Of a stretch of DNA of 64,000 nucleotides, positions 3,087 through 18,959 are shown piece by piece. Both the position numbers and the translations under genes were made by a program. Each line of letters opens with the position of its first letter. The first letter of the stretch is position 1. This stretch comes from an uncultured Gammaproteobacteria bacterium (lineage in GTDB: Bacteria > Patescibacteriota > Patescibacteriia > Patescibacteriales > UBA12465), in NCBI GenBank assembly GCA_964587195.1, contig CAZPKN010000001.1:341-64340 (forward strand), given 5' to 3'. Below the pieces are notes generated by a model that was not told where the DNA came from, searched no databases, and saw only the letters and a program-made list of their open reading frames with translations.

Positions 3087-3800
3087 ATGAAAATAATCCT
3101 CCAAAAAATTATTGCTTCAAGCGGCTACTCTTCAAGACGTGAAGCTGAAAGACTAATCAGAGGCGGTAGTGTCAAAGTTAACGGCCAAATAGCAGAAGTC
3201 GGCCAGCAAGCCGATCCTGAAAAAGATAGAATAACTGTTAAGGGAAAATTAATCGGACAAGCCGAAAAACTAGTCTATTTAATTTTCAATAAACCGGTCG
3301 GCTACACCTGCACTAATCGCCAATTTTCCGGAGAAAGAAATATTTTTGAGCTAGTTAGAAGACCGGAAAGATTGTTTGCAGTCGGTCGGTTAGATAAAGA
3401 TAGCCGCGGTTTAGTTTTACTAACCAACGATGGCGACCTGACCCTAAAACTTTCCCACCCGCGCTTTGCTCACGAAAAAGTTTACGAGGTTAAAGTAAAA
3501 GATGAGGTTATTAATCCAAAATTAGTTATTAAAGAGTTACTTAAAGGCGTTGATATAGATGACGAAGACGAACCATTAAAGGCAATAAAGGCAGAATATT
3601 TACAAAACGGTTTATTTATAATAACCTTAAACGAGGGCAAGAAAAGGCAGATTAGACGCATGTTTGAGGCGCTCGGCACTAAAGTCGCTGACCTTAAAAG
3701 AATACGTCTAGGTAGTCTTCATTTAGGAGATTTACCCGAAGGAAAATATCGCGAATTAACAACCGAGGAATTAACCGAGCTAAAGAAAGACATTGAATAA
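3087..3800 (+). CDS. rRNA pseudouridine synthase (RsuA/RluB family)
   Basis: N-terminal S4 domain (SSRREAERLIRGGSVKVNG) and catalytic motif VGRLDKDSRGLVLLTNDGDL. Confidence 0.8.
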   Translation: MKIILQKIIASSGYSSRREAERLIRGGSVKVNGQIAEVGQQADPEKDRITVKGKLIGQAEKLVYLIFNKPVGYTCTNRQFSGERNIFELVRRPERLFAVGRLDKDSRGLVLLTNDGDLTLKLSHPRFAHEKVYEVKVKDEVINPKLVIKELLKGVDIDDEDEPLKAIKAEYLQNGLFIITLNEGKKRQIRRMFEALGTKVADLKRIRLGSLHLGDLPEGKYRELTTEELTELKKDIE

Positions 3801-3826
3801 AATAATCATTGTAACTAAATAATATT

Positions 3827-3913
3827 GGAGACGTGGCTGAGTGGTTGAAAGCACCGCACTCGAAATGCGGCATACTCGAAAGAGTATCAGGGGTTCAAAT
3901 CCTCTCGTCTCCG
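3827..3913 (+). tRNA. tRNA-Ser (anticodon CGA)
   Basis: Cloverleaf drawn by hand. Acceptor GGAGACG/CGTCTCC, anticodon loop CTCGAAA, long variable arm, T-loop TTCAAAT. CCA is not encoded. Confidence 0.8.
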
Positions 3914-4094
3914 CAGGTAAATTTCAGAACGGATTTATCCGTTCTGAAATTTAGCTTTTGGACAGACAGGAGGATGAGAACCCGAAGGGTTCACACTGCC
4001 GAGGATAGCGAGAGAAATGATAGCTTGCTAGCATTTCCGAGCGACGCAGGCAGAAAGGGCGACAAAGTCGCCCTGCAATCCTCTCGTCTCCGCC
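3914..4094 (+). repeat. tRNA-linked GC-rich module: hairpin, ~140-bp GC-rich segment and a 17-nt duplicate of the tRNA-Ser 3' end (4077-4093)
   Basis: aatcctctcgtctccgc at 4077-4093 is identical to tRNA 3' end 3898-3914. Perfect inverted repeat aaatttcagaacggatttatccgttctgaaattt precedes it. Segment contains gcaggcag, a fragment of the palindrome family seen at other tRNAs. Confidence 0.5.
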
Positions 4095-4167
4095 TTCGCC
4101 ACGCCATAGCCACCTAAAAGGTGGCGGCGGCGGGCAATGTTTATACTGTTTTAAAAACTTATTTTTA

Positions 4168-4207
4168 AAACCCCCGCTCTTTTACTTAAAAGCGGGGGTT
4201 TTGTTAT
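4168..4207 (+). terminator. rho-independent terminator
   Basis: aaaacccccgctcttttacttaaaagcgggggtttt. Confidence 0.6.
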
Positions 4208-4275
4208 ATTAAGACAAGCTCTAGCGAGGTTCTTTTTTTTTATTAAAAAAGCCATTTGACAATTTTTGTCATTTT

Positions 4276-4304
4276 TTGACACGACACTTTAGCTGTGTTA
4301 AAAT
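4276..4304 (+). promoter_or_regulatory. sigma70-like promoter (TTGACA-17-TAAAAT) upstream of HTH gene and hsdM
   Basis: TTGACA at 4276-4281, 17-nt spacer, TAAAAT at 4299-4304. A second TTGACA lies at 4256-4261. Confidence 0.45.
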
Positions 4305-4339
4305 GTAAGTAAAGAAAAGCTATACGAATTATAAATTTT

Positions 4340-4519
4340 ATGACTAAATCGGATAAACTCTTAACGATTGAAGAAGTGGCCGGAATATTGCGGGTCAGTA
4401 CGCGAACTATCGTTAGATATATAGAATCAGGAAAACTAAAAGCCTCGAAAATAGGCGTCTGGAGGATTAAAGAATCAGACGTCCATTTATTTTTAGAAGA
4501 AACTAGCAATAAAAAATAG
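4340..4519 (+). CDS. small helix-turn-helix DNA-binding protein (excisionase/MerR-like HTH_17 family), 59 aa
   Basis: Absent from the ORF track because it is under 60 aa. Translation MTKSDKLLTIEEVAGILRVSTRTIVRYIESGKLKASKIGVWRIKESDVHLFLEE. 'LTIEEVAxxLxVSxxTIxRxIxxGKLxAxKIG' is the classic Xis-type HTH. Confidence 0.55.
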   Translation: MTKSDKLLTIEEVAGILRVSTRTIVRYIESGKLKASKIGVWRIKESDVHLFLEETSNKK

Positions 4520-4532
4520 GTTTATAAATATT

Positions 4533-6110
4533 ATGACAAAATCCACCCATCAAAATAATACTAAAGAACAAGAACGAGCCGAGCTACATCGCGCGATTTG
4601 GCAAATTGCCAATGATTTGCGAGGCGCAGTCGACGGCTGGGATTTTAAACAATATGTTCTCGGCATTCTTTTCTACCGCTTCATCAGTGAAAATTTAACA
4701 AAACATGTTAATAACGAAAAAAATGAAGGCGTCGGCTTTGACTATACAAAATTAGATGACAAAACAGCGGAATTCGGTCGGAAGGAAACGGTTATTGAGA
4801 AAGGTTTTTTTATTCTACCAAGCGAACTGTTTGTAAATGTTTGTAAAAATGCGAGACATAATCCGAATTTAAACGAAACGCTTTCAAAAATTTTCAGCAA
4901 CATTGAAAACTCGGCTAAGGGTTTTGAAAGCGAGGGCGATTTAAAGGGCTTATTCGCTGATTTGGATGTTAATTCTCCGAAATTGGGTAATACGGTTGAT
5001 AAAAGAAATCAGAAATTGGTTAAACTACTTGAAGCTATCGGTGCTCTTCGCTTAGGAAATTACCAAGACAATACCATTGATACTTTCGGCGACGCTTATG
5101 AATATTTAATGAGTATGTATGCTTCAAGCGCCGGAAAATCCGGCGGTGAATTCTACACGCCTCAGGAAGTAAGCGAGCTTTTAGCGGAAATTACCACCGT
5201 CGGGAAAACTGAGGTTAATAAAGTTTATGATCCTTGTTGCGGTTCGGGCTCGCTCTTGCTTAAATTCGCTAAAGTTCTCGGCAAAGATAAGGTTAGGCAG
5301 GGTTTTTACGGCCAAGAAATAAATCTCACGACTTATAATCTCTGCCGTATTAATATGTTCTTACATGACATAAATTATAATCATTTTGATATTGAACACG
5401 GCGATACTTTAACCGACGCGAAACATTGGGATGATGAGCCGTTTGACGCCATAGTTTCTAATCCGCCTTATTCGATAAGATGGGAGGGCGACAGCAATCC
5501 TTTACTGATAAATGATGCTCGTTTTTCGCCGGCCGGCGTTTTAGCTCCGAAAAGTAAGGCTGATTTAGCATTTACTATGCATATGCTTTCCTGGCTATCT
5601 ACGGGCGGAACGGCGGCGATTGTTGAATTTCCGGGTGTTCTCTATCGCGGCGGCGCCGAACAAAAAATTAGGCAATATTTAGTTGAGAATAATTATATTG
5701 ATACAGTTATCCAGCTCCCGCCCGATCTTTTTTTCGGAACTAGTATTGCAACTTGTATTTTGGTTCTTAAAAAGAGTAAAACGGATAATAAAATTTTATT
5801 TATTGATGCTTCGGCGGAGTTTGTTAGGGGCGGAAATAAAAATAAATTAAGCGAAGAAAATCGCCAGAAAATTTTAAAAGCTTTTATAGACAGAAAAAAT
5901 ATAGAATATTTCGCAAAAACGGCTGAGAACCAAAAAGTCGCCGCTAATGATTATAATATTGCTGTTTCAAGTTATGTTGAGCAGGAAGATACTAGAGAAG
6001 TTATTAACATAAAAGAACTGAACCAAGAAATCGTTAAAATTGTTAAAAGACAGAGCGAGTTAAGAAAAGCGATTGATGAGATTGTCGGGGAGATTGAGGG
6101 GAGTAAATAA
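4533..6110 (+). CDS. hsdM: type I restriction-modification system methyltransferase subunit
   Basis: HsdM N-terminal domain (LHRAIWQIANDLRG...YVLGILFYRFISE). SAM motif DPCCGSGSLL. Catalytic NPPY (IVSNPPYSIRW). Confidence 0.9.
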   Translation: MTKSTHQNNTKEQERAELHRAIWQIANDLRGAVDGWDFKQYVLGILFYRFISENLTKHVNNEKNEGVGFDYTKLDDKTAEFGRKETVIEKGFFILPSELFVNVCKNARHNPNLNETLSKIFSNIENSAKGFESEGDLKGLFADLDVNSPKLGNTVDKRNQKLVKLLEAIGALRLGNYQDNTIDTFGDAYEYLMSMYASSAGKSGGEFYTPQEVSELLAEITTVGKTEVNKVYDPCCGSGSLLLKFAKVLGKDKVRQGFYGQEINLTTYNLCRINMFLHDINYNHFDIEHGDTLTDAKHWDDEPFDAIVSNPPYSIRWEGDSNPLLINDARFSPAGVLAPKSKADLAFTMHMLSWLSTGGTAAIVEFPGVLYRGGAEQKIRQYLVENNYIDTVIQLPPDLFFGTSIATCILVLKKSKTDNKILFIDASAEFVRGGNKNKLSEENRQKILKAFIDRKNIEYFAKTAENQKVAANDYNIAVSSYVEQEDTREVINIKELNQEIVKIVKRQSELRKAIDEIVGEIEGSK

Positions 6111-6242
6111 ATTTTATAAATAAAAAGTTGAGACAAAACATTATAAATTTATGAAGGCGACGGCGGAGCGTATTTGGAAAGTATAAAGGTTTTGGAAAAG
6201 AGGGTTGGGGGGGGATAAGAATAAATTTTAAATGAATGAGAT

Positions 6243-7643
6243 ATGAAAATAAAAAAAATTGAATTCTATAACCATAAAATACTAGGAGATTTTGCAATAG
6301 ACTTTTCCGTCGATAATGTTATAAAAAATATTTCATTACTGGTGTCGGAAAATGGATGCGGTAAAACAACTTTATTAGAAGAAATTTATAAAATCTTGAC
6401 AGAGAGTTTTGCTGCCTGGGAGAATGGGCCTAATAAAAAAATAACATTTGAATTTACAGAAGATGAAAAAAATAAATTTAGCTTATCAACACACATATTA
6501 ACCATTGAATACGACAAATCAAAGAGTGAAAATAATATGTGGGGCAGATTTTTTGTTTTTGATGAAAACGGCAATGATATTAGTGCTAGCGCTCGTTCAT
6601 TGTTATATAATAATCCTTTAACTAGTGCTTTTAAATGCGCCTTTTCTACTGTTGAGATAAATTTCGAAAAGAGGTCTATAGAATCAATTAAGGCAACCTC
6701 GATTGACTCTGATGAATTTGTCAAAAATAAATCTACAAACAATATAGCAACAGAAATCTCTCAGTTATTAGTAGATATAAAGAATCAAGATAATGCCGAA
6801 AAGGCTAATCTTTTTGATAGTGGGGCCATAAGCACAGAACAACCGTATGCTGGAAAATTTGATCGTTTTAAGGCGGCTTATTCAAAGATGTTTAATGGAA
6901 AAGAATTGAAAGATGTAATTACCGAAAATAATAATTATAAAATTATTTTTAAAGACTTAAAAAAGAATGTTGAATTTGACATATCCGATCTCAGCTCAGG
7001 GGAAAAACAAATTGTTTATAGGGCTGGTTATTTACTTAAAAACTTACGAGGCATTACTAGCGGAGTAGTTCTTATAGATGAGCCTGAATTAAGTTTGCAC
7101 CCCATATGGCAAGAAAAATATCTTCAATTTATCAGAGAAGTATTCCTTTTAGAAAATAAAAATGATATTCAGTTTGTTATAGCGACTCACTCATTTTTAC
7201 TATTAAAAGATGCTCTAAAAGATGGTATCGTGATTAATATTTTCAGAAAAGATAGCCTAGGTCAAATTTCAGTAATAAATGCAAGAGACAAAGGTTTTGG
7301 TTTATTAAAATGGAGTCCTTCGTGGGGGGAAATATGTCATTTTGCATATGGATTACCAACTATTGAGTTTCACAATGATTTATATTCTGCAATTGAGGAT
7401 AAGTTAAAAAATGATCCATCAGATCGAATCGCCCAAGCTGTATTTGAAAAATATATAAAAGATAACGCCCCAAATACTCCAATAATAAAGTGGAAAACTT
7501 CAAGCGGACACCAAAAAGAAGAGACAATAATGACATTTGTAAGAAACAACATTCATCACCCAGATAACATTGAGAGGCCTAAGGCAGAGCCAGATCAATT
7601 AACAAAGTCTATCCACTATATGCTGAAATTAATTACTAGTTAA
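6243..7643 (+). CDS. ABC-type/AAA_21-like ATPase with uncharacterised ~130-aa C-terminal domain
   Basis: Walker A SENGCGKTTLLEEI, ABC signature-like LSSGEKQ, Walker B VVLIDEPELSLHP, H-loop IATHS. Inserted between hsdM and hsdS. Confidence 0.6.
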   Translation: MKIKKIEFYNHKILGDFAIDFSVDNVIKNISLLVSENGCGKTTLLEEIYKILTESFAAWENGPNKKITFEFTEDEKNKFSLSTHILTIEYDKSKSENNMWGRFFVFDENGNDISASARSLLYNNPLTSAFKCAFSTVEINFEKRSIESIKATSIDSDEFVKNKSTNNIATEISQLLVDIKNQDNAEKANLFDSGAISTEQPYAGKFDRFKAAYSKMFNGKELKDVITENNNYKIIFKDLKKNVEFDISDLSSGEKQIVYRAGYLLKNLRGITSGVVLIDEPELSLHPIWQEKYLQFIREVFLLENKNDIQFVIATHSFLLLKDALKDGIVINIFRKDSLGQISVINARDKGFGLLKWSPSWGEICHFAYGLPTIEFHNDLYSAIEDKLKNDPSDRIAQAVFEKYIKDNAPNTPIIKWKTSSGHQKEETIMTFVRNNIHHPDNIERPKAEPDQLTKSIHYMLKLITS

Positions 7644-7662
7644 TTTTTAAAATAAAATTTTT

Positions 7663-8055
7663 ATGGAAATTATTGAACTCATCTTTTCAAATATTAAAAA
7701 TATTTTCTGGTTAATTTTTGCATTAGCACTTTTAATAGTTGCGATTAAAATAACCTTTACTTTTAATATTAATGAATATTTAAAAATTAGGAAAGGCAAC
7801 ATTGATAATAAAATTAGAAATTGCTGTCCACATGCTCATATTTCTATTGTTGACAACAAGGTAATAGCAGAATCTTCTTTTGTTTCTCCCGTCGGCACAA
7901 CTAATTATATTTGCGAAAGATGTCGGTCAGTTATTTATGTCATGGATAAAGAGAGCGAAAAACAAAGAATAGAGAAATTAGTTAAAAATTTTGACGGATA
8001 TATAAAGCAAGAAAAAAAATTTAAAAAACTTTTAAGGAAAGGTGGATATATTTAA
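7663..8055 (+). CDS. small membrane-anchored protein with CxxH...CxxC zinc-ribbon-like motif
   Basis: N-terminal TM helix (IFWLIFALALLIVAI), then CCPHAH...CERCRS. No recognisable family. Confidence 0.4.
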   Translation: MEIIELIFSNIKNIFWLIFALALLIVAIKITFTFNINEYLKIRKGNIDNKIRNCCPHAHISIVDNKVIAESSFVSPVGTTNYICERCRSVIYVMDKESEKQRIEKLVKNFDGYIKQEKKFKKLLRKGGYI

Positions 8056-8085
8056 TATTTATAAGGTAGGGGCAAATGCAATAGT

Positions 8086-9114
8086 TTGATTAATATGAAA
8101 ATTGAATCAACTAACAACGAAGTGGGAATTGAACTTCATTATAGTTTTAACGATATTGATATTCATTCAATAAACTTTTATATTAGGAATTCTTGCTCAT
8201 TAGCTCAAGCGGAAATTATATCTTACCTAATAAATACTTTATACCCGGATGAGCATTTTGAGATTTTAACATTACCTCCGCAAAAAGGGTCTTTTAACGA
8301 TATAACTATCATAAAATTTTTAAACAAAAATCCCGGGATTATTCTTTCAGTTATTTCTTTAATATTGCCCGCATTACTGTATAATAGCCAGCTTAAAGCA
8401 AATGAAACAACAACAGATTATAATATTTTACAAGTTATTGAAAAATGTAAAGATTTAGATTCCAATTTCCCCGATGAAGTTTTGCAAAAAATAAATAGCA
8501 TTTGCGATTCGTATTATCCCAGAAAACAAAAAAATATTTTTTACGAATCTATAATATCCGATAAAAACATAGTTAGCATTGAGCCGAAGATATTTGCAAA
8601 TGATAAGAATGTTTTCAACGCACAAATAAAGCAAGAAGAGTTTGGAGATTATATAGAAGACATTCCAAAAGAAAAAGAGTTCCTAAAAGTTGAAATGACT
8701 GGCAACATACAATTGTCGCAACCTGTTATTGATAGGCAGCAACAATATGGCAGGGGTTTAGCGTGGAGGGGCGTATACTACGGGAATGATATCTCAGATG
8801 AAAACAATAATCTTATTGTTGAGGATGGTGAAAACATATTTTTTTATATGCAGGATGATGAATATAAAAAACAAATATTAAATCAGGAAATATCGTTTAC
8901 TAGTGGTGATAATATAGGTGTTATTTTTGATGTCAGTCGTTACTATGATTATGTAAATGATAAATTTGGCAAACCTAGATTATACGTGAAAAGAGTAGTC
9001 TCTCACAATGACAACCTCGTACAACACAAAAAGGACCTGGCTTTAAAACAAGAATTAAAAAAATTTGAAGAAAAGAATAAAAACCAGTCATCGCTTTTTG
9101 ATATTATAAAGTAA
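8086..9114 (+). CDS. hypothetical protein (342 aa) with one internal hydrophobic segment
   Basis: Long ORF with no recognisable motif. Hydrophobic stretch PGIILSVISLILPALLY. Very AT-rich. Ends 4 nt before the hsdS start. Confidence 0.4.
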   Translation: MINMKIESTNNEVGIELHYSFNDIDIHSINFYIRNSCSLAQAEIISYLINTLYPDEHFEILTLPPQKGSFNDITIIKFLNKNPGIILSVISLILPALLYNSQLKANETTTDYNILQVIEKCKDLDSNFPDEVLQKINSICDSYYPRKQKNIFYESIISDKNIVSIEPKIFANDKNVFNAQIKQEEFGDYIEDIPKEKEFLKVEMTGNIQLSQPVIDRQQQYGRGLAWRGVYYGNDISDENNNLIVEDGENIFFYMQDDEYKKQILNQEISFTSGDNIGVIFDVSRYYDYVNDKFGKPRLYVKRVVSHNDNLVQHKKDLALKQELKKFEEKNKNQSSLFDIIK

Positions 9115-9118
9115 TGCT

Positions 9119-10300
9119 ATGAAAACTAACCAGCCCAAAATCGAAAAGCTAATTTCAGAACTATGCCCGAATGGTGTGGAGTTTTTGGAAATTGATAGTT
9201 TGTGGATTAGGGCACCAAAATCAAAGCTCGGCGTCGCCCAAGTCAAAGAGCTTGGTGATGGTGAAAACATTTGCTTTACTTCTGGTAAAAATATTTTTTA
9301 TGTCGATAAATATCTTGTTGACGGTGAGTATATTTTTATGAATGATGGTGGAAGCGCTGATACAAAATATAATAAAGGTAAGGCGTATTATACGGATCAC
9401 ACTTTTACATTTACATGTGACAAAATAAAAATATTGCCAAAATTTCTTTATTTTTTCTTAAAAGAAAATGAAAAACATATAAATGATGTTTTATTTAAAG
9501 GAACGGGGTTAAAAAATTTAAATAAAAAAGCATTTGCAAACTTTCAAATCCCCATCCCACCCCTTGAAATACAAGAAGAAATCGTAAAAATTCTTGATAA
9601 TTTTACGGAGCTAGAAGCGGAGCTAGAAGCGGAGCTAGAAGCGGAGCTAGAAGCGAGAAAGAAGCAATATGAGCATTATCGCACTAGTCTTTTCCTAAAG
9701 AATAAAAATAATGAAATTAAGACGCTTGGCGAAGTTTGTTGTATTGGTTCTGGCGGGACACCATCAAAATCAAAGAAAGGATATTGGGAAAATGGAGACA
9801 TCCCCTGGATTAAGTCTGAGTCATGTAAAAATGAATCGGTACGTGTAGCAAATAGTTTTATTACAAGTATTGGTCTTAAAAATTCAAGTGCAAAATTATT
9901 AGATAAAAACACAACATTAATTGCTCTTGTCGGAGCTACTATTTTTAAAACTGCGTTTTTAGAGTTTGAGGCTAGTACAAATCAAAACATAGCAAGTATT
10001 AAATCTAATGACCAATCGATGTTGAGTGATAAGTTTATTTTTTATTATTTAACTAGTCTTTATTCAAGCTTAAAGAATAATATGAAAGATTATGGGATGC
10101 TCAACTTAACAACACTTAGGTCTTTCAAAATCCCCGTCCCACCCATCGCTGAACAAGAACGCATCGTTTCAATCCTTGATAAATTCGATGCCCTTGTTAA
10201 TGATATTTCAATCGGTTTACCCGCTGAACTTAAGGCTCGTCGTAAGCAATATGAATATTACCGAAACAAGCTTTTGATGTTTAAAGAATTAACAAAATAG
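9119..10300 (+). CDS. hsdS: type I restriction-modification system specificity subunit
   Basis: Two target-recognition domains, each followed by a conserved helix (IPIPPLEIQEEIVKILD / FKIPVPPIAEQERIVSILD). Central and C-terminal ...RKKQYEHYR / RRKQYEYYR conserved regions. Confidence 0.8.
   Translation: MKTNQPKIEKLISELCPNGVEFLEIDSLWIRAPKSKLGVAQVKELGDGENICFTSGKNIFYVDKYLVDGEYIFMNDGGSADTKYNKGKAYYTDHTFTFTCDKIKILPKFLYFFLKENEKHINDVLFKGTGLKNLNKKAFANFQIPIPPLEIQEEIVKILDNFTELEAELEAELEAELEARKKQYEHYRTSLFLKNKNNEIKTLGEVCCIGSGGTPSKSKKGYWENGDIPWIKSESCKNESVRVANSFITSIGLKNSSAKLLDKNTTLIALVGATIFKTAFLEFEASTNQNIASIKSNDQSMLSDKFIFYYLTSLYSSLKNNMKDYGMLNLTTLRSFKIPVPPIAEQERIVSILDKFDALVNDISIGLPAELKARRKQYEYYRNKLLMFKELTK
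9608..9655 (+). repeat. perfect 12-bp tandem repeat x4 (gagctagaagcg) encoding (ELEA)4 in the central conserved region of hsdS
   Basis: Four identical in-frame units counted directly. The position corresponds to the spacer-length-determining repeats of type I S subunits. Confidence 0.9.
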
Positions 10301-10301
10301 T

Positions 10302-11390
10302 ATGGAAAAGTTTGATTCCATCGAAAATCTTGCTAAAGAAATAAAAAAGAAATTAAAGGTCACTAAGAAAAAGAAGATAGGAGCTCTTTATGCATTTAAT
10401 TCTACCGGAAAAACAAGATTATCAACGATATTAAATGAATCAAATAGAGAAGATGAGGAAAGCGACGGTAAAATAAAAGTTCTTTGTTATAACGCTTTCT
10501 TAGAAGACATGTTTATATGGGACAATGAGAATTATGTTCTTTCTTTTAATACAAATTCATGGATTGTAAAATTAGTAATTGATCAAGGTTTGGATGGAGA
10601 TATTATTGACAATTTCAAAGATATTATAAACTCAAATATCGAGCCCTCATTTGACTTTACTAATGGGGAAATTGCTTTTAATGTAGTTTCAGGAGATGAC
10701 AACAGTAAAAATAATATTAAAATTTCAAAGGGAGAGGAAAGTATTTTCATATGGTCATTTTTTTATACTATCCTAAAATCCGCAATTGAGACTCTAAACA
10801 TTGAGGAGTCAAATAGGCCTACGCCTGTTTTTAATGACCTAGGGCGCATAGTCATTGACGATCCAGTATCCTCTCTAGATGATACCAAGATAATAACAAT
10901 GACAATTAAGCTTGTGGAAACCATAGAATCATTTGAAGGTGACTCTCTATCGTTCTTTATTGCCACGCATCACGCTTTATTCTACAATATTTTAGTTAAT
11001 TCTTTTAAAAGAAATAGTGGTTGTAATTTTAAATCATACAACCTTATAAAAGATAACTATACCTTTCAACTTTTAAAACAAGGGGACACTCCTTTCTCTT
11101 ATCACCTATCAATAAAAAAAATTATTCAGGAAGCTATAATAGGTAATCATATTGAAAGATATCACTTCAATCTTTTTAGAAGCCTACTTGAGAAAACATC
11201 TACCTTCTTGGGATACGACGATTGGAGAAAATGCGTGCCGAGCGGAAGAAAGGCGGAATTTATAAGACTTCTTAATTTGTATAGCCATGGCAAATTATCA
11301 GATATTGAGAGCAGACAGATGTCTGGAGAGGATAAAATTATTTTTGAAGAAACATTCACTAATTTTGTCTCAGATTTTAAATGGGGTTAA
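10302..11390 (+). CDS. PrrC-like anticodon nuclease (ABC-ATPase N-domain + C-terminal ACNase-like domain)
   Basis: Walker A AFNSTGKTRL, signature-like ISKGEES, Walker B/D-loop IVIDDPVSSLDD. C-terminal R-x3-E (FRSLLEK) and downstream YSHGK, as in the PrrC catalytic triad. Sits between hsdS and hsdR, the canonical prrC position. Confidence 0.55.
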   Translation: MEKFDSIENLAKEIKKKLKVTKKKKIGALYAFNSTGKTRLSTILNESNREDEESDGKIKVLCYNAFLEDMFIWDNENYVLSFNTNSWIVKLVIDQGLDGDIIDNFKDIINSNIEPSFDFTNGEIAFNVVSGDDNSKNNIKISKGEESIFIWSFFYTILKSAIETLNIEESNRPTPVFNDLGRIVIDDPVSSLDDTKIITMTIKLVETIESFEGDSLSFFIATHHALFYNILVNSFKRNSGCNFKSYNLIKDNYTFQLLKQGDTPFSYHLSIKKIIQEAIIGNHIERYHFNLFRSLLEKTSTFLGYDDWRKCVPSGRKAEFIRLLNLYSHGKLSDIESRQMSGEDKIIFEETFTNFVSDFKWG

Positions 11391-11435
11391 TAATATACGA
11401 ATATTACCGAAACAAGCTTTTAACTTTTAAAGAAT

Positions 11436-12311
11436 ATGAATCATAAAATTTCCATCCGTTTTTTTAACGACCGAGAAGTTCGGGCTGTTTGGGATGAAAA
11501 AAATAATAAATGGTTATTTAGTGTATTAGATATTATTGCCGTTCTTACAGATCAAAATAATTACACTAAGACCCGTAACTATTGGAAATACCTCAAGGCC
11601 AAGCTTAAGAAAGAAAAAAGTCAGGTGGTTAGTTCTACTACCCAACTGAAAATTTTGGCAAATGATGGAAAACGGTATTTAACCGATATGCTGGACTATG
11701 ACGGTATTATCGCTTTGGGTAAAAATTTCCCCGGAACAAAGGCTAACCGATTTATTAATTGGTTTACTTTTAGCGACGAGGGTATAGACGGGAAAAGCAA
11801 AACCAAGGCTTATGCTTTGTTCGAAAGTTCGCTAATTAACAACATAGAAATAGGGACCACGAAAGGACTAAAGCAGATTCACGCCTACTTATTCGGCGGT
11901 CTTTATAATTTTGCCGGACAAATTAGAAAAAAGAATATTTCTAAAGGCGGTTTTCAGTTTGCTATGGCGCAGTATTTAGAAAACACACTTCAGCAGATTG
12001 AAAAAATGCCGGAGAAAACTTTTGAAGAAATTGTTGATAAATATGTAGAAATGAATATCGCTCATCCATTTATGGAAGGAAATGGCCGAACGACTCGCAT
12101 CTGGCTCGATTTAATTCTTAAAAAACGCTTAAAAAAATGCGTGGACTGGAGCAAGATAAGTAAGAAGGACTACATCGGTGCGATGATACGAAGCCCTAAA
12201 AACAGTCTAAAACTAAAAAATTTACTAAAAAAATCCTTAACTAACAAAATCAACAATCGTGAAATGTTTATGAAAGGAATAGATTATTCATATTATTACG
12301 AAGAGGATTAA
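11436..12311 (+). CDS. Bro-N domain - Fic/Doc family protein
   Basis: N-terminal Bro-N-like segment ([33 protein letters not shown]). Fic motif [12 protein letters not shown]. Confidence 0.7.
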
Positions 12312-12317
12312 AAAACT

Positions 12318-15300
12318 ATGCCAAACCAAGAACACAGCTCCGCTGAAAATTCGGCGGGAAGTTATAATCTAGTCGCTTCAAGTACTCAAAGCACCGTCGT
12401 GGCTGAGTATGTTTCTGATAAAAAAAGAGCGTTTAAGTATCAAAGCGAAGCCGAACTTGAAAAAGCTTTCATTAAGCAGTTAGAAGCCCAGGCTTATGAA
12501 TATTTAAAAATCGCCTCAGAAGATGATTTGCTTTTGAATTTACGAAAACAGCTCGAAAAGCTAAATGATTATAATTTTAGCGATTTAGAATGGAATCGAT
12601 TTTTTAAAGCCGAAATTGCTAACCAAAGCCAGGGTATTGAAGAAAAAACCGCTACCATTCAGGAAGATTATAAAAAAAATCTAATTCTTGATGACGGCTC
12701 AACTAGAAATATTTATCTCATTAAAAAAGACAGTATCCACGATAATAGTTTACAAGTTATTAACCAATATTCAAGCGAAGATGGCGAACGATTAAACCGC
12801 TATGATGTAACGATTTTAGTAAACGGCCTACCGCTTATCCATATCGAGCTAAAAAGACGAGGAGTAGCCATACAAGAAGCATTTAATCAGATAAATAGAT
12901 ACCAAAGAGAAAGCTTTTGGGCCGCTTCCGGTCTGTTTGAATATGTCCAGTTATTTATTATCTCAAACGGAACCCATACTAAATACTATAGCAATACTAC
13001 CAGATCACAGCACATCAAAGAGTCCGGCGAAGGAAAACAGAAAAAGGGCAGGCGGACAAGTAATAGCTTTGAGTTTACGAGCTGGTGGGCAGACGCCGCT
13101 AATCGGCCGATTACCGACTTAATTGATTTTACTAAAACATTTTTCGCCAAGCATGCCGTTTTAAATATTTTAACAAAATATTGCGTCTTTACCTCGGACA
13201 AATTACTGTTAGTAATGCGCCCCTACCAAATCGTCGCCACGGAAAGAATTTTAAATCGCATCGAAATAAGTACAAACTACAAAAAATTCGGAACCGTTGA
13301 GGCGGGCGGCTATGTTTGGCATACGACCGGGTCCGGAAAAACCCTAACTAGTTTTAAAACCGCTCAGCTTGCTAGCAAATTATCTTATGTTGATAAGGTT
13401 TTGTTTGTTGTTGATAGAAAAGATCTCGATTATCAAACCATGCAGGAATATGACAAGTTTGAAAAAGGGGCCGCAAGCAGTAATGTCAGTACCGCTATTT
13501 TAAAAAGACAACTAGAAGACAGTAGCTCAAGAATTATCGTCACAACTATTCAAAAACTCGATCGCTTTATCGCTAAAAACTCCGGACATACCGTTTTTGA
13601 CGGACATATTGTTATTATCTTTGACGAGTGCCACCGCTCACAATTCGGCGAAATGCACGCCGGCATAGTTAAGGCCTTTAAAAAATATCATCTATTCGGT
13701 TTTACCGGAACGCCGATTTTTGCCGCTAACGCTTCAACCGGCGGTCGTCCCGATTTTAAAACAACCGAGCAGGCTTTCGGTTCAAAACTTCATACCTATA
13801 CCATAGTTGACGCTATTTCCGATAAAAATGTTCTACCTTTTAAAGTCGATTATGTTTCAACTGTCCGCGAAGCCGAAGACATTGAAGATAAAAAAGTTAG
13901 CGATATTGATAGAGAGGCCGTTTTAGCCGCCCCGGAAAGACTCGAGAATATCGTTAAATATATTATTGAACATTTCGACCAAAAAACTAAACGAAATAGC
14001 TTTTATAAACTAAAAGAACGGAGGCTAGCCGGTTTTAATTCAATTTTTGCCGTTAGTTCAATTGAAGTTGCTAAAAAATATTATTTAGAATTTAAAAAAC
14101 AATTAGCCGAAGTTCCGAGCGATAAAAAATTAAAAATAGGAACTATTTTTAGTTTCGGGGTTAACGATGAAGACGGAGACGGAATGATGGATGAAAATTC
14201 CGAGGACACTAGCGGGCTTGATACTAGCTCTAGAGATTTTTTAGAAAGCGCTATTTCCGATTATAATGAAATGTTCGGAACATCTTACGATACCTCCTCC
14301 GATAAATTCCAAAATTACTATAAAGATGTCAGCGAAAAAGTAAAGAAAAGAGAGCTTGATGTCTTAATTGTCGTTAATATGTTTTTGACCGGGTTTGATG
14401 CGACTACTCTTAATACCCTTTGGGTTGATAAAAATCTGCGCTCGCACGGACTGCTCCAAGCTTATTCTAGGACTAACCGCATCTTAAACAGCATCAAAAC
14501 TTTCGGTAATATCGTTTGTTTTAGAAATTTAGAAAAAGCGACTAACGAAGCGATTGCCCTATTCGGCGATAAAGAAGCGGGCGGGATTGTTTTGCTTAGA
14601 TCTTATCAAGACTATTACCACGGCTATAAAGATGGCGATAAAGAATTTCGAGGTTATGTTAGCTTAGTCGACGAGCTAATGGCAAAATTCCCGGTCGGGA
14701 TAAGAATTGATAGCGAGCAAGCGCAAAAAGAATTCATTAATCTCTACGGCGGAATTTTAAGACTAAGAAACATTTTAACAACTTTCGACGAGTTTATCGG
14801 CGATGAAATATTTACCCAATACGATATTCAGGACTATCATAGCATGTACATTGATTTGTATAATGAACTTCGCAAAGTTAAAGAGAGCGAGAAAGAAAAT
14901 ATTAATGATGATATTGTTTTCGAAATGGAACTTATTAAACAAGTTGATATCAATATTGATTATATTTTAAGTCTTATTAAAATCTACCATGAAGATAATA
15001 CAAAAAATAAAGACAGCTTGATGGATATTAATAAAGCGATTGACGCGAGCGTTGAGCTTAGAAATAAAAAAGATTTAATTAACCAGTTTATCAGCTCGCT
15101 TGATATTAATTCAAAGATTGATGAAGATTGGCGGAAATTTGTTGCTGAAAAAAAGATTGAAGAACTGGAAAAAATTATCGCTAACGAAAATTTAGACAAA
15201 GAAGCGACTTATGCGCTTATTGATAACGCCTTTAAAGACGGCTATGTCCCGACTACTGGAACGACTATTACCAAAATTTTACCACCCGTATCAAGATTTT

Positions 15301-15392
15301 CTCCCGACGGAAAAATGACTATTAAGCGCGAAACTGTTCTTAGAAAACTAGCTAGCTTCTTCGACAGATTCTTTGATATTTCTGAGAGGTAG
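12318..15392 (+). CDS. hsdR: type I restriction-modification system restriction subunit (SF2 helicase/endonuclease)
   Basis: 1024 aa. HsdR N-terminal nuclease region, helicase motif I TGSGKT, DEAD-box-like IIFDECHRSQFG, motif VI-like QAYSRTNR. Confidence 0.9.
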   Translation: MPNQEHSSAENSAGSYNLVASSTQSTVVAEYVSDKKRAFKYQSEAELEKAFIKQLEAQAYEYLKIASEDDLLLNLRKQLEKLNDYNFSDLEWNRFFKAEIANQSQGIEEKTATIQEDYKKNLILDDGSTRNIYLIKKDSIHDNSLQVINQYSSEDGERLNRYDVTILVNGLPLIHIELKRRGVAIQEAFNQINRYQRESFWAASGLFEYVQLFIISNGTHTKYYSNTTRSQHIKESGEGKQKKGRRTSNSFEFTSWWADAANRPITDLIDFTKTFFAKHAVLNILTKYCVFTSDKLLLVMRPYQIVATERILNRIEISTNYKKFGTVEAGGYVWHTTGSGKTLTSFKTAQLASKLSYVDKVLFVVDRKDLDYQTMQEYDKFEKGAASSNVSTAILKRQLEDSSSRIIVTTIQKLDRFIAKNSGHTVFDGHIVIIFDECHRSQFGEMHAGIVKAFKKYHLFGFTGTPIFAANASTGGRPDFKTTEQAFGSKLHTYTIVDAISDKNVLPFKVDYVSTVREAEDIEDKKVSDIDREAVLAAPERLENIVKYIIEHFDQKTKRNSFYKLKERRLAGFNSIFAVSSIEVAKKYYLEFKKQLAEVPSDKKLKIGTIFSFGVNDEDGDGMMDENSEDTSGLDTSSRDFLESAISDYNEMFGTSYDTSSDKFQNYYKDVSEKVKKRELDVLIVVNMFLTGFDATTLNTLWVDKNLRSHGLLQAYSRTNRILNSIKTFGNIVCFRNLEKATNEAIALFGDKEAGGIVLLRSYQDYYHGYKDGDKEFRGYVSLVDELMAKFPVGIRIDSEQAQKEFINLYGGILRLRNILTTFDEFIGDEIFTQYDIQDYHSMYIDLYNELRKVKESEKENINDDIVFEMELIKQVDINIDYILSLIKIYHEDNTKNKDSLMDINKAIDASVELRNKKDLINQFISSLDINSKIDEDWRKFVAEKKIEELEKIIANENLDKEATYALIDNAFKDGYVPTTGTTITKILPPVSRFSPDGKMTIKRETVLRKLASFFDRFFDISER

Positions 15393-15467
15393 ATATATTT
15401 TGAGATAATTAATTTTAAATTATACCTTTGAAAATGACCATCAGTCAGCGTTAAATAAAAAATAATT

Positions 15468-15881
15468 ATGAATGGCTTTCAATATAAAAAAGATTATAAT
15501 TTTTTCTTAAATAAGTTAGCTAAAGGCGATAAAATTTTATTTGCTAAAAAATATCTGAAGTTATTTGATTTTAGAGATCCTAGTATAAAAAGAAAGGAAT
15601 TTAATAAAATTAGGAATAAATTATATAAAAAATTAGTTTTAAAATTTGGCGAACAATGTCAGTTAAAAATTCACCCTGATTGTTTCAAGGAGAAATCTTT
15701 TGATGTTGATCATTTCATTCCTCTCTCAACAAATAAGCTAAATAAGGAACTCAGAAATATAAAAGCAGCAAAAGGGAGAAAGGTTGCGAGTCAAAGTTTT
15801 GGGTCGAATGACATTGCTAATCTAAAAATAGCTTGTAAGAAATGTAATAGCTATAAAAAACATAAACTTTTGTTTAAATAA
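15468..15881 (+). CDS. HNH endonuclease
   Basis: CQLKIHPDC...DVDHFIPLS...IACKKCNSYKKH: two Cys pairs with a His-containing core, typical of HNH. Confidence 0.6.
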   Translation: MNGFQYKKDYNFFLNKLAKGDKILFAKKYLKLFDFRDPSIKRKEFNKIRNKLYKKLVLKFGEQCQLKIHPDCFKEKSFDVDHFIPLSTNKLNKELRNIKAAKGRKVASQSFGSNDIANLKIACKKCNSYKKHKLLFK

Positions 15882-16022
15882 TTAACGACAAAAAGAACTT
15901 AAACACCCCCGACCTAATCAATAAAATTATCACTGAAGTAGAAAGAACGTATAAAAGATATTAAAATTATAATAAATGCAAAAATAAGATAAAATCTACT
16001 TGAATACTATCAATCATCCCCC

Positions 16023-17519
16023 ATGCCACACATAAGCAAAACACAATACCTTGAATACCTCGCCTGCCCTAAGAACGCCTGGCTTAAACAACATAAGCCG
16101 GAGTTGGCTGGCTCTTTTGAGTTATCAGCTTTTGAAAAAAGTTTAGTCGCTAATGGAAATTTAGTTGAAGAGTGGGCCAGAAAACTTTTTCCAAGCGGCG
16201 TTTTAATAGAATCATCTGGCAAAACAGCCGCCTTAGAAACTATTAAATATTTAGAGGTTAAACAGTCGGCTATTTTTCAAGCTACTTTTATCACCGATAA
16301 ATTTCTAGCGCGAGCCGATGTTTTAGAATATGATAGTGAAACCGACTCTTGGAATCTCTATGAAATAAAAGGTACTAATTCCTTGAAAGAAAAAACCGAT
16401 GACAGAGATCATATTGATGATGCCGCTTTCCAATATATAACCCTTGGCGACTGCGGCCTAAAAATTGGAACTATAAATATTATCCACCTCAACAAAGACT
16501 ATATCCGGGGCGATGAAATAAACGTTCAAGAATTATTTGCGATTGATGATATCACTGATAAGATTCTCGAGCGAGAAGAGGCCACTAGAGAAAAAATGTC
16601 GGAAGCCGCTCAGGCTCTTTTTCAAAAAGACGAACGGGCAGTTAATTGCAATTGCATTTACAAAGGACGGAGCAATCATTGCTCAACTTTTAGCTATGCT
16701 CATCCTGAAGTCCCTGAATATGCTATTCATGATTTATACCGCATCGGCCTGAGCCCAAAAAAATTAGCCTCCCTGGTTGATGACAATATTTTTGATCTTG
16801 CCGACGTTCCCTCCGACTTTAAATTATCAGAAGCTCAGCAGAATCAAATTAACGTCTATAAAAGCCAAATGCCGATGATAGATTTAATATCTATTAAAGC
16901 CGAGCTTGAAGCGCTAAAATACCCGCTCTATTTCTTTGATTACGAAACATACCCACCGGCCATTCCCCTTTTTAAAGGCTTTAAACCCTATCAGCATATC
17001 CCCTTTCAATTTTCTCTACACGTCCTAAGCAGCCCGGACAGCGAGCCTGAGCATTACGGATATCTTCATATAGATAATACTAATCCGACCGCAGACATTA
17101 TTAATGCCCTACAAAAATATATCGGCCCCGAGGGAAGTATTATTGTCTGGTATAAGCCGTTTGAACAAACCAGAAATTTGGAATTAGCGCTTTTAAGTCC
17201 TGACAATAGTGAGTTTTTAGCGGATATCAACAACCGCATCTACGATTTAATGGATATCTTTTCCAAACAGCTATACGTCCACCCAAAATTTAAAGGGAGC
17301 ACTTCGATTAAAAAAGTATTACCAGTTTTAGTTCCATCTCTTAATTACCAAGAGTTAGAGATAAAAGAAGGGGGATCGGCCATGGAAGCTTGGTTTGAAA
17401 AAATATTTAATGCCAGTTCAGAAGCAGAGAAAGAAGAAACTGCTAAAAATCTTCTAAAATATTGCGAACTAGACACCTATGCCATGTACGCTATTTGGAA
17501 GGAATTGATGAAAATATAG
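16023..17519 (+). CDS. DUF2779-family protein (RecB/Cas4-like PD-(D/E)xK nuclease N-domain plus C-terminal domain)
   Basis: N-terminus ISKTQYLEYLACPKNAWL matches the DUF2779 'SKSxYxxxxxCPKxxWL' signature. D...EIK motif (ADVLEYDSETDSWNLYEIKG). Confidence 0.55.
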   Translation: MPHISKTQYLEYLACPKNAWLKQHKPELAGSFELSAFEKSLVANGNLVEEWARKLFPSGVLIESSGKTAALETIKYLEVKQSAIFQATFITDKFLARADVLEYDSETDSWNLYEIKGTNSLKEKTDDRDHIDDAAFQYITLGDCGLKIGTINIIHLNKDYIRGDEINVQELFAIDDITDKILEREEATREKMSEAAQALFQKDERAVNCNCIYKGRSNHCSTFSYAHPEVPEYAIHDLYRIGLSPKKLASLVDDNIFDLADVPSDFKLSEAQQNQINVYKSQMPMIDLISIKAELEALKYPLYFFDYETYPPAIPLFKGFKPYQHIPFQFSLHVLSSPDSEPEHYGYLHIDNTNPTADIINALQKYIGPEGSIIVWYKPFEQTRNLELALLSPDNSEFLADINNRIYDLMDIFSKQLYVHPKFKGSTSIKKVLPVLVPSLNYQELEIKEGGSAMEAWFEKIFNASSEAEKEETAKNLLKYCELDTYAMYAIWKELMKI

Positions 17520-17647
17520 AGAAATTGATAAGTTTGTGGATACTAGAACCGTCACTTGATTTTTATAAAGATACATATTATAATAATCCGTTACCTTAGT
17601 TCATTAACTTCAAAAAAAACAATGCCTTCAAAGGAGGGGGGATATAT

Positions 17648-18148
17648 ATGGAAACAAATAATATTAAACTTTTTAGCGGAGAATTCTTCCTCCCTGTCGA
17701 TTATGATGAAGACTTTGACGACTTGCTCGAAAAAGGAAACTACGACCACGTTTCAGATGACATCAATGAAGAAAATTTTCAATCAGTTGTACAAGCCGAA
17801 CAAAGCGGGAACATTATTCAAGTTGCAAGGTTTATAGGGAGTAGAAAAGGAGGAATTTGCGATCTTATAGGTTTCCCATACAGACAAGCGACTTTAAGAG
17901 AGTTCGCGTCTTATGCATTAATCAAGCCTTCCGGGCCATTATTTGGGGTAGCCTATGGTTCAGTCTATAAAATAGCCCCGGGTAAAATGGAAGTTCCTTA
18001 TTTTAGCGATGAAAATGGCCGAAGGCGATTACATGGTATTTTGTCAGAATTAGATTATGAAAAAGAGCCGTACGGTAGATTGCTAGTTATCAGGATGTGT
18101 TTCGATTTAAACGAATATTACCGATCTCAAATTGAATTCTTTAGCTAG
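17648..18148 (+). CDS. hypothetical protein
   Basis: 166-aa ORF followed by a terminator. No family recognised. Confidence 0.35.
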   Translation: METNNIKLFSGEFFLPVDYDEDFDDLLEKGNYDHVSDDINEENFQSVVQAEQSGNIIQVARFIGSRKGGICDLIGFPYRQATLREFASYALIKPSGPLFGVAYGSVYKIAPGKMEVPYFSDENGRRRLHGILSELDYEKEPYGRLLVIRMCFDLNEYYRSQIEFFS

Positions 18149-18164
18149 AAGCCCCTCTTCAAAA

Positions 18165-18205
18165 GTCCCCGTTTCATTTATGAAGTGGGGATTTTCTTTT
18201 TTATG
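18165..18205 (+). terminator. rho-independent terminator
   Basis: gtccccgtttcatttatgaagtgggga hairpin followed by a T-tract. Confidence 0.55.
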
Positions 18206-18220
18206 CTATAATCCATATAT

Positions 18221-18955
18221 ATGAAACTAATATCATTAAATGCCTGGGGTGGACAGGTTCCGGAAATAATAGACTTTTTTAAAAAATACCAAGACGTTGA
18301 TATTTTTTTATTACAAGAAGTTTTTAATGATGGGACTGAAAGAACGGTTTTTCATGAAAACGAAAAAACTCAATTATTTAAAGAGTTGGATGAAAAGCTC
18401 CCCAGCCATCAAGGCTATTTTGCCCCCTCAGTTTTTCAAGAGTGGGGATTAGCCATTTTTATTAAAAAATCTATTTCTATTTTAACAAGCGGGGATCATT
18501 TTGTTTATTTACATAGAGAATCCTTACGTGGCCAAGAATTCAAAACCGTCGGTCGAAACTTACAATTTATAAACATTATCCATAATGGTAAAAATTTAAA
18601 TATTATTAACTTTCACGGACTTCATACTGGAGAAGGCAAGGATGATTGTCCTGAAAGAATAGACCAGTCAAAAAAAATAATTGATTTTATAAAAAAACTA
18701 GAAGGAGAAATAATTCTAGCTGGCGATTTTAATCTCAAGCCAGACACGGAAAGCTTAATAATGATTGAAAAAGGGCTTAAATTAAAAAATCTTATAAAAG
18801 ACTACGAGATAAAATCAACACGCACTTCATATTATAGTAAACCGGAAAAATTCGCCGATTATATTCTATGCTCAGAGGGAGTAAAGGTTGAAGAATTCTC
18901 TACTCTACCTGAGGAGGTATCCGATCATAAAGCGCTGTTGATGAAATTTATATAA
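18221..18955 (+). CDS. endonuclease/exonuclease/phosphatase (EEP) family protein
   Basis: N-terminus LISLNAWGG...DIFLLQEV and C-terminal SDHKAL motif, typical of the EEP fold. Confidence 0.6.
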   Translation: MKLISLNAWGGQVPEIIDFFKKYQDVDIFLLQEVFNDGTERTVFHENEKTQLFKELDEKLPSHQGYFAPSVFQEWGLAIFIKKSISILTSGDHFVYLHRESLRGQEFKTVGRNLQFINIIHNGKNLNIINFHGLHTGEGKDDCPERIDQSKKIIDFIKKLEGEIILAGDFNLKPDTESLIMIEKGLKLKNLIKDYEIKSTRTSYYSKPEKFADYILCSEGVKVEEFSTLPEEVSDHKALLMKFI

Positions 18956-18959
18956 ATTT

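Follow-up and report, generated by a model that had tools for sequence, protein, structure and literature searches.

Within a 64,000-nt stretch of contig CAZPKN010000001.1 (the window), we describe a gene cluster that is very probably a chromosomal defence locus of a candidate phyla radiation (CPR) bacterium: a complete type IC restriction-modification (R-M) operon forms its backbone, with the anticodon nuclease PrrC as a proposed backup and further modules embedded between the R-M genes. The cluster comprises 12 closely spaced open reading frames (ORFs) on the + strand between positions 4340 and 18148, with 1 to 141 nt from one to the next. Proteins were called by profile hidden Markov model (HMM) searches against Pfam, PADLOC and NCBIfam, and were also matched to PHROGs. 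An earlier reading of the same DNA, made from the letters alone (the sequence-only reading), had proposed a defence island here, and PADLOC matches for the type I M, S and R subunits, PrrC, PDC-S04, PDC-S42 and a PtuA/AriA-like ATPase bear this out; none of its motif-based calls failed in the HMM searches, and the ORFs lie where it had placed them, on the + strand. We assign the host to a Patescibacteria/CPR metagenome-assembled genome (MAG), for which the earlier description as a streamlined genome is reasonable; the nearest genomic relatives of the flanking pseudouridine synthase are Patescibacteria-group MAGs (60–68% identity).

The backbone is classed as a complete type IC system of the EcoR124 family because HsdR (12318–15392, +), the restriction and translocase subunit with a DECH box, matches the EcoR124I HsdR structure (PDB 2w00) and EcoR124II at 3e-255 over residues 18–840 and carries the EcoR124_C domain (1e-64), together with HSDR_N, SWI2_SNF2 and T1R_D3 and a PADLOC REase_I match of 1166 bits. 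HsdM (4533–6110, +), a type I N6-adenine methyltransferase with an NPPY motif, matches N6_Mtase (6e-116), HsdM_N (1e-19) and PADLOC MTase_I (1e-128), and HsdS (9119–10300, +) has two target recognition domains (TRDs), with Methylase_S (2e-53) in two stretches and PADLOC Specificity_I at 4e-102. The claim of a complete type I system made of an NPPY HsdM, a two-TRD HsdS and a DECH-box HsdR is reproduced by the Pfam and PADLOC matches for all three subunits. Within hsdS, a perfect tandem repeat of 4.2 copies of a 12-bp unit (9606–9655, +; TRF, 100% matches, score 100) codes for a central (LEAE)x4 spacer between the TRDs. In EcoR124I/II HsdS, the copy number of a TAEL repeat (two or three) fixes the spacer length. 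By gaining or losing repeats, the array could act as a slipped-strand switch of specificity, as in EcoR124I/II; among the metagenomic copies that span the whole of hsdS (L001 and L002), no change in repeat number was seen.

Directly after hsdS, with a spacing of 1 nt, begins prrC (10302–11390, +), and hsdR follows after an 876-bp Fic gene. The product has an ABC-ATPase N-domain and a C-terminal anticodon nuclease domain and matches PADLOC PrrC at 3.8e-97; the Pfam scan gives an AAA_13 match only. As a reference we used the 396-aa "anticodon nuclease" of the E. coli P1-like plasmid CP057689, which lies in the order hsdM-hsdS-anticodon nuclease-hsdR and carries R320, E324 and H356 as well as 284-KYGDSNKSFSY-294, in the EcoPrrC numbering of PMC2610378, the source of the defining features of EcoPrrC. 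The window protein (362 aa) is 38% identical to this reference, and all ATPase motifs are invariant in the alignment, namely Walker A YAFNSTGKT (30–38), the KISKGEES signature and Walker B IDDPVSSLDD. The YNAFxEDxFxWDN box and the His switch T222-H223 are conserved, the catalytic triad R293/E297/H329 corresponds to R320/E324/H356 of E. coli with the same Arg-X3-Glu-X31-His spacing, and the alignment contains no RloC-type coiled-coil insert. Judged by alignment, the protein is a true PrrC orthologue. PDB sequence searches with PrrC, as with the p342 and DUF2779 proteins described below, gave no informative matches.

The position of prrC is also the one known for this family. PrrC has more than 6,500 members at E ≤ 1e-5, and in a context survey of 80 metagenomic loci HsdS was found in 67, HsdR in 67 and HsdM in 57. 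The hsdR gene lies directly 3′ of prrC in all 67 informative metagenomic loci, and hsdS lies upstream wherever the contig extends far enough. Earlier work described prrC as invariably linked with type IC R-M systems (PMC2610378) and as embedded almost exclusively within type I systems, an extreme case of embedding (bioRxiv 10.1101/2024.01.29.577857). The sequence-only reading had likened the whole S–R interval, with its PrrC and Fic genes, to the E. coli prr locus. Both genes are indeed present; the likeness holds for PrrC but not for Fic, which does not belong to the E. coli locus. None of the 80 other PrrC loci surveyed contains a Bro/Fic gene, nor an HNH or DUF2779 gene.

The Fic gene (11436–12311, +) encodes Bro-Fic, a fusion of an N-terminal Bro-N-like domain with a Fic AMP-transferase of class III (NmFic type), and matches the PADLOC candidate model PDC-S04 (PDLC04841) at 4e-161 over 1–290 of 292. 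Its N-terminus matches Bro-N (5e-5), PDC-S13 (4e-29) and phrog_15286 (4e-21), and the protein scores 279.8 bits against the NCBIfam NmFic equivalog NF046029 (cut-off 230) and finds NmFic in the PDB at 2e-71. The catalytic motif HPFxEGNGRxTR, with H210 of HPFMEGNGR as the catalytic histidine, aligns with NmFic HPFLEGNGRSTR, and the two proteins align almost residue for residue across the Fic domain. Of the putative inhibitory helix, S285-YYY-E289 is kept; the next residue is E and not the G/N of (S/T)xxxE(G/N), and the protein ends two residues on. A 61%-identical Bro-Fic follows hsdS directly in a type I locus of the Treponema saccharophilum plasmid pTS1 (NZ_AP025289.1, 306–12784), which reads hsdR, ATPase, hsdM, winged helix-turn-helix (HTH), ORF6N, hsdS, Bro-Fic, hypothetical, HNH and P-loop NTPase, a composite arrangement that parallels the window in a spirochaete. 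Thus, the association of Bro-Fic with type I loci recurs across phyla. In viral contigs, only short Bro-N fragments were found.

NmFic is an auto-inhibited growth regulator that AMPylates GyrB (PMC12894286), and the close alignment of Bro-Fic with this self-regulating enzyme raises the question of whether Bro-Fic and the SoFic-type protein encoded further downstream are housekeeping or toxin-antitoxin-like growth regulators, a role proposed for NmFic in Neisseria, and not anti-phage effectors, in which case "abortive infection" would be the wrong label for them. A knockout speaks for this as well: when PDC-S04 was deleted in its native host, phage protection was unaffected in the one such test found (bioRxiv 10.1101/2024.12.20.629700). 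On the other hand, Bro-Fic matches over its full length a PADLOC model whose source genes lie within defence systems, it adjoins hsdS in another phylum too, and Bro-N is typical of phage and anti-phage proteins. We consider this reading of the two Fic proteins doubtful and retain Bro-Fic as a candidate defence module.

What the sequence-only reading had left as an unnamed insert between hsdM and hsdS consists of three genes, the first of which encodes a 466-aa ABC ATPase of the OLD/PtuA/AriA/GajA clade (6243–7643, +; AAA_21 and AAA_15; PADLOC PtuA 1e-31, AriA 1e-22). A profile of its family matches OLD (2e-31), PtuA (7e-28), AriA and GajA in the PDB, none of them reaching beyond roughly position 366 of 481, and the core has a Walker A GxxGxGKT, an LGSG-like signature, a DEPE Walker B and a THS H-loop. 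The remaining C-terminal domain of about 125 aa, with invariant R434, H438 and H439 and the consensus RNxIHHPEN, was found in 217 representatives of protein clusters, where it almost without exception terminates ATPases of 450–500 aa, and has no match in Pfam or the PDB. A single-sequence AlphaFold2 (AF2) model of the ATPase reached a mean confidence (pLDDT) of 38.6 and was not used. We rejected an assignment to Septu, because the neighbours are p130 and p342 with no PtuB and the NCBIfam PtuA score is 57.8 bits against a cut-off of 500; the only HNH gene of the cluster lies 8 kb from the ATPase and scores 6e-3 for PtuB. PARIS, OLD and Gabija were likewise rejected, since a TOPRIM (DUF4435) domain is found neither in the protein nor in its neighbours.

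The second gene encodes p130 (7663–8055, +), a 130-aa protein with an N-terminal transmembrane helix, a CxH...CxxC zinc-ribbon-like motif and a basic C-terminus, for which no family match was found in Pfam, PADLOC, NCBIfam or PHROGs. Only seven homologues were found among 5.8 billion proteins, with C55, H57, C84 and C87 invariant, and in every context examined (L026, L111/112, L113 and L115) the gene is placed within a type IC locus, after hsdM and before hsdS or the reverse. The companions change, with RhuM in L111, a ClpP-like protein and PrrC in L113, and T5orf172 in L115. The third gene encodes p342 (start at 8086 or 8095, end at 9114, +; 339 aa from 8095, 342 aa from the TTG at 8086), whose sole family match is PADLOC PDC-S42 (PDLC05016) at 8e-22, covering residues 7–338 of the protein and 5–317 of 320 model positions; with this moderate match, p342 appears to be a distant PDC-S42 member. 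The few of its 49 homologues that come with a source name are all from CPR lineages. An AF2 model of p342 had a pLDDT of 65 and gave no Foldseek match. Because its homologues either stand alone or belong to different defence islands (an HpaII R-M system with Mrr-nSTAND3; GmrSD with a methylase), we take p342 to be an independent single-gene module; distant relatives with 25% identity lie downstream of hsdR in two PrrC loci.

We also considered the ATPase, p130 and p342 as a single three-gene system and rejected this, since p342 homologues never co-occur with the ATPase, and L111, L113 and L115 have p130 but lack the ATPase. The pairing of ATPase and p130 recurs in L026 alone, in the opposite order. 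This locus (JACCDV010455510.1, 5449–16094) is the closest related one, with 81% identity in HsdM, 80% in HsdR and 62% in PrrC, and reads hsdM, p130, a 453-aa ATPase, hsdS, prrC, RhuM (PDC-S05), hsdR and GIY-YIG/DUF4357 (PDC-S14), with NYN, DUF2726 and ParB genes in the flanks. The C-terminal half of its ATPase is 30% identical to that of the window ATPase. The two loci share the backbone and differ in the cargo of the hsdM–hsdS and prrC–hsdR slots.

The main alternative to the mechanism proposed below is that the ATPase, p130, p342 and Bro-Fic are selfish or otherwise independent cargo of permissive slots, with PrrC alone tied to the R-M system. The occurrence of the p342 family standalone or in unrelated islands is as expected for such cargo, as are the absence of Bro-Fic from the 80 surveyed PrrC loci and the variation of slot contents among close relatives, and linked horizontal transfer is one explanation offered for embedding (bioRxiv 10.1101/2024.01.29.577857). 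p130 does not fit this picture, being found inside type IC loci only, in five of five independent contexts, and neither does the Bro-Fic gene that again adjoins hsdS on the Treponema plasmid; moreover, the same preprint cites work in which anti-restriction proteins trigger ABC ATPases of this clade. Base composition is on the side of independent cargo, the embedded genes being distinctly lower in GC. The GC content is 37–39% in hsdM, hsdR and DUF2779, matching the genome, and 25–33% in the genes for the ATPase, p130, p342, HsdS, PrrC and HNH (25% in HNH), with Bro-Fic at 35%, so that a GC shift, which the sequence-only reading had suggested looking for, is present between the embedded genes and hsdM, hsdR and the genome. 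Since GC differs between groups of genes, the locus is indicated to be mosaic in origin. Taken together, we hold independent cargo to be quite conceivable, if somewhat short of probable. At the other extreme, p130 might be a hitherto unrecognised, lineage-specific accessory type IC subunit of CPR and related uncultured bacteria, which together with PrrC, the ATPase and Bro-Fic would form one integrated "guarded restriction" machine; we find this improbable. As such a subunit, p130 might for instance anchor the R-M complex to the membrane at the point of phage DNA entry, or control its activity there.

The preferred reading, a type IC operon with PrrC backup and embedded modules, is compatible with expression from a single promoter. 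A sigma-70-type promoter, TTGACA-17-TAAAAT with a TG-extended −10 box (4276–4304, +; score 11/12), is the highest-scoring site of this type in a consensus scan of 3800–18300. The sequence-only reading had named this promoter and its spacing correctly and had taken the wrong TTGACA for it: the −35 box is the second one, at 4276, and the one at 4256 belongs to a perfect palindrome, TGACAA-TTT-TTGTCA (4257–4271), which was read from the sequence and abuts the −35 box. No second copy of this palindrome, TGACAATTTTTGTCA, occurs in the window. The first gene (4340–4519, +) encodes a 59-aa MAD1-like DNA-binding protein of the HTH_17/excisionase family and stops 13 nt upstream of hsdM. Its earlier description as an Xis-type HTH holds, with Pfam HTH_17 at 3e-16 and TIGR01764 (excisionase family) at 44 bits, above the cut-off, next to PADLOC mad1 at 4e-8. 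This protein is a probable controller of operon transcription; the palindrome is its candidate operator, through which it may regulate its own gene.

A G+C-rich hairpin terminator lies just 5′ of the promoter (4167–4202). Because the best promoter is upstream and the strongest terminator-like hairpin of the region (18162–18195, +), with a 15-bp stem and a T-run, follows the last gene, one long transcription unit from 4276–4304 to 18162–18195 is plausible, with the hairpin as its probable 3′ end; the terminator scan found no strong internal terminator between the two.

Three genes follow hsdR on the same strand and probably share the transcript of the R-M operon. They encode a 137-aa HNH endonuclease (15468–15881, +; Pfam HNH 29 bits, HNH_5 28 bits, and HNH families in PHROGs), a 498-aa DUF2779 protein with an N-terminal Cas4/PD-(D/E)xK-like part (16023–17519, +; DUF2779 1e-40, Cas4 2e-4), and the 166-aa p166, the final gene before the terminator (17648–18148, +), which is called as an ORF and has no match in Pfam, PADLOC, NCBIfam or PHROGs. 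The Pfam score of the HNH protein is above the cut-off, yet the match covers just the C-terminal ~25 residues. The sequence-only reading had counted the HNH and DUF2779 genes to the island; their strand and family calls are confirmed, but their membership in the defence system finds no convincing match among defence models, the best being PtuB at 6e-3 for HNH and Cas4 at 2e-4 for DUF2779. No phage matches were found for DUF2779. On two plasmids, of Aliarcobacter (L122) and Diaphorobacter (L123), DUF2779 is followed immediately by a WYL-domain regulator, and the gene ahead of it encodes a PD-(D/E)XK nuclease or else an ATP-binding protein of large size. This suggests that DUF2779-WYL could be an uncharacterised module, and these plasmid neighbours in other phyla hint at a conflict-related role. 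The assignment of HNH, DUF2779 and p166 to the island is provisional.

Comparison with related genomes places the cluster in a variable interval. On the left, the order S6-SSB-S18-EF-P-Wzy_C-pseudouridine synthase-tRNA-Ser(CGA) is found in relatives, and tRNA-Ser(CGA) (3827–3914, +; ARAGORN, Rfam 60 bits), syntenic in L005–L009, marks the end of conservation. On the right, the gene order agrees with L006 and L007 again from tRNA-Asp(GTC) (24311–24387, −; ARAGORN), followed by tRNA-Val and tRNA-Leu. Between tRNA-Ser and tRNA-Asp lie 20.4 kb in the window versus 3.7 kb in L006 and 6.0 kb in L007, which contain unrelated, non-defence genes. L006 and L007, the nearest relatives available, keep the flanks and have no island gene at this locus, so the flank comparison comes out in favour of an island. 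Because the intervals differ in size and lack the cluster in the relatives, the cluster sits in a variable hotspot. The cluster proposed in the sequence-only reading is real, but the variable region is larger than proposed, running from tRNA-Ser (3914) to tRNA-Asp (24311) and including a second Fic-family defence gene, of the SoFic type, next to tRNA-Asp (22757–23887, −; Fic_N, Fic and HTH; PADLOC SoFic 5.7e-119, Pfam Fic_N and Fic).

Further genes of this interval lie between the terminator and the SoFic gene. One (20259–20888, +) encodes an HTH_3-NUDIX fusion, the NUDIX part of which matches the PADLOC candidate PDC-S07 at 7e-14, and is preceded, with an 11-nt overlap, by a gene for a DUF2178 membrane protein. 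A gene for ribosomal protein S4 (21134–21715, +) stands alone within the interval; in other CPR contigs (L107 and L108), S4 is found within an S13-S11-S4-RpoA-L17 cluster.

The last 17 nt of tRNA-Ser, AATCCTCTCGTCTCCGC, recur without mismatch at 4077–4093 (+), and none of 100 shuffles gave a second match; the copy is probably an attachment (att)-type scar. We rejected an integrative element bounded by tRNA-derived repeats, as there is only one extra repeat, 163 bp past the tRNA, and no integrase. The search for an integrase covered the ORFs from 4340 to 24300, and no flanking att pair delimits a mobile island. The 17-nt copy takes part in the closing stem of a predicted fold of the 185-nt spacer 3956–4140 (+), which lies between tRNA-Ser and the island promoter and has 57% GC versus 38% in the genome. 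The fold is a cloverleaf-like multibranch structure (−83.7 kcal/mol, z = −5.8). No Rfam family matched the spacer at E ≤ 1 beyond noise, no conservation was seen in relatives, and ARAGORN, intron settings included, found no tRNA or tmRNA in it. Possible readings of the spacer are an att scar, a tRNA copy that has degenerated, or a novel small RNA.

The tRNA duplicate, together with an excisionase-family HTH as the first gene and the absence of an integrase, could be taken to mean that the cluster is a decaying, non-functional remnant of a mobile element that had integrated at tRNA-Ser. A population variant seems to point the same way: in L002 (ENA ERZ724084 NODE_2894), which is otherwise 99.985% identical to the window, one indel in the region 4685–7758 (window 12318–15392) splits hsdR into ORFs of 564 and 402 aa. 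This frameshift could reflect a natural variant that has lost restriction; alternatively, as a single indel in a contig of only ~6x coverage, it may stem from the assembly. All twelve ORFs of the window are full-length with intact catalytic motifs, the locus sequence is identical in four independent metagenome contigs, with 100% identity across three other assemblies, and the att-like duplicate brackets only ~160 bp, leaving the island outside. We therefore regard decay as very unlikely, and favour an intact defence cluster.

How such a cluster might work can be sketched from what is known of its families, to which we owe the assumptions of restriction, PrrC latency and release, Fic growth arrest and ATPase sensing. 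The promoter at 4276–4304, probably autoregulated by the HTH protein, would drive the same-strand array from the HTH gene to hsdR and possibly to p166. As a first line, by established family function, M2S1 would methylate host DNA and R2M2S1 would translocate on and cut unmodified phage DNA. As a second line, the R-M complex would keep PrrC latent, as suggested by orthology with E. coli PrrC, until a phage anti-restriction factor disables the complex, upon which PrrC would cut a tRNA anticodon loop and shut down translation. The NmFic-type Fic, presumably auto-inhibited by its C-terminal SxxxE helix, would AMPylate targets of the GyrB/ParE type and arrest growth, with the Bro-N domain of Bro-Fic possibly sensing DNA or phage, and the OLD/PtuA/AriA-clade ATPase may sense phage proteins or DNA ends. 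The spaces between hsdM and hsdS and between prrC and hsdR are recurrent slots, and since their cargo varies in related loci (RhuM, ClpP-like, T5orf172), the locus is best seen as a scaffold that collects independently mobile, AT-richer defence modules, as known under the name of "embedding".

Several observations weigh against this picture or parts of it. The tRNA-recognition loop of the window PrrC, KQGDT--PFSY, keeps the G, D and FSY of KYGDSNKSFSY, the region concerned with tRNA-Lys in E. coli, and has a two-residue deletion; because the loop differs, the tRNA substrate may differ from that of EcoPrrC. Silencing of PrrC by its own R-M enzyme is carried over from E. coli PrrC by orthology. 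The ATPase has no recognisable effector partner and ends, as far as its sequence can be interpreted, in an uncharacterised domain. HNH, DUF2779 and p166 have no support from defence models and never accompany PrrC in the 80 other loci. The operon structure and the operator come from consensus scans, and the palindrome is statistically weak when taken alone, as 12% of shuffles match at least once with at most one mismatch. The PDC-S04 knockout and the split hsdR of L002, both described above, belong to this side as well.

Embedded defence genes, the prr locus, PrrC, PDC-S04, PDC-S42 and SoFic have all been described before; new are the phylum of the host, an operon with four embedded units stacked in it, the uncharacterised C-terminal domain of the ATPase and the finding that p130 is tied strictly to type IC loci. 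CPR bacteria are ultra-small and uncultured, and their anti-phage repertoire is poorly known; to our knowledge, CRISPR is mostly absent from them. A literature search found no report of embedding of defence genes in Patescibacteria/CPR. With this locus the prr paradigm, in which a latent anticodon nuclease guards an R-M system, would extend to this group; the locus also offers a compact example of PDC-S04, a PDC-S42-like gene and an OLD/PtuA-clade ATPase stacked within one type IC operon, and the type IC linkage of p130 is strict enough to merit testing. Current understanding is not overturned, and the value of the locus lies mainly in annotation and as a source of candidates.

Compared with the E. 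coli prr locus (EcoprrI, hsdM-hsdS-prrC-hsdR), the window shares the type IC backbone, the position of prrC right after hsdS and 5′ of hsdR, and the Walker A, signature, Walker B/D-loop, His switch and triad of PrrC. In contrast to the E. coli locus, it has Fic between prrC and hsdR, an insert of three genes separating hsdM from hsdS, a gene for an HTH regulator in front and a CPR host, and its PrrC is shorter (362 versus 396 aa) with a shortened tRNA-recognition loop. The EcoR124I/II systems resemble the window in HsdR, including the EcoR124_C domain, and in the short tandem peptide repeat that lies centrally in HsdS between the TRDs, but the repeated unit is TAEL there and LEAE x4 (a 12-bp x 4.2 array) here. 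NmFic of Neisseria meningitidis shares with Bro-Fic the HPFxEGNGRxTR motif and the S-Y-Y-Y-E residues of the inhibitory helix (equivalents of Y183 and E186), whereas the window protein adds a Bro-N-like N-terminal domain of ~115 aa, sits in an R-M operon, ends its inhibitory motif in E rather than G/N and has no equivalent of Y188.

The ATPase core matches Septu PtuA, PARIS AriA, OLD and Gabija GajA at 1e-17 to 1e-31 with the family profile; unlike these systems, it has no adjacent PtuB HNH, AriB or TOPRIM domain and has the C-terminal domain of ~125 aa instead. With MAD1 of the MADS system and the controller (C) proteins of R-M systems, the window shares a small co-oriented HTH gene directly 5′ of a type I-like methyltransferase gene and a palindrome that overlaps the promoter region; its HTH protein, however, scores 26.7 bits against a MAD1 equivalog cut-off of 80 and belongs to the excisionase/MerR-type HTH_17 family, in contrast to the Xre-type C proteins. 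Defence genes embedded in type I R-M loci have been surveyed, with ABC ATPases as a dominant class (bioRxiv 10.1101/2024.01.29.577857), and the "rlo" restriction-linked ORFs of C. jejuni are earlier examples of embedded genes. Like the embedded loci of type I R-M, BREX and DISARM systems (PADLOC HEC/PDC), the window has same-strand genes nested between R-M subunits, and it shares PADLOC's embedded candidates PDC-S04 and PDC-S42, as its relative L026 does PDC-S05 (RhuM). In contrast to the known embedded loci, the C-terminal domain of its ATPase and p130 are not represented in PADLOC, and four embedded units are stacked in one operon.

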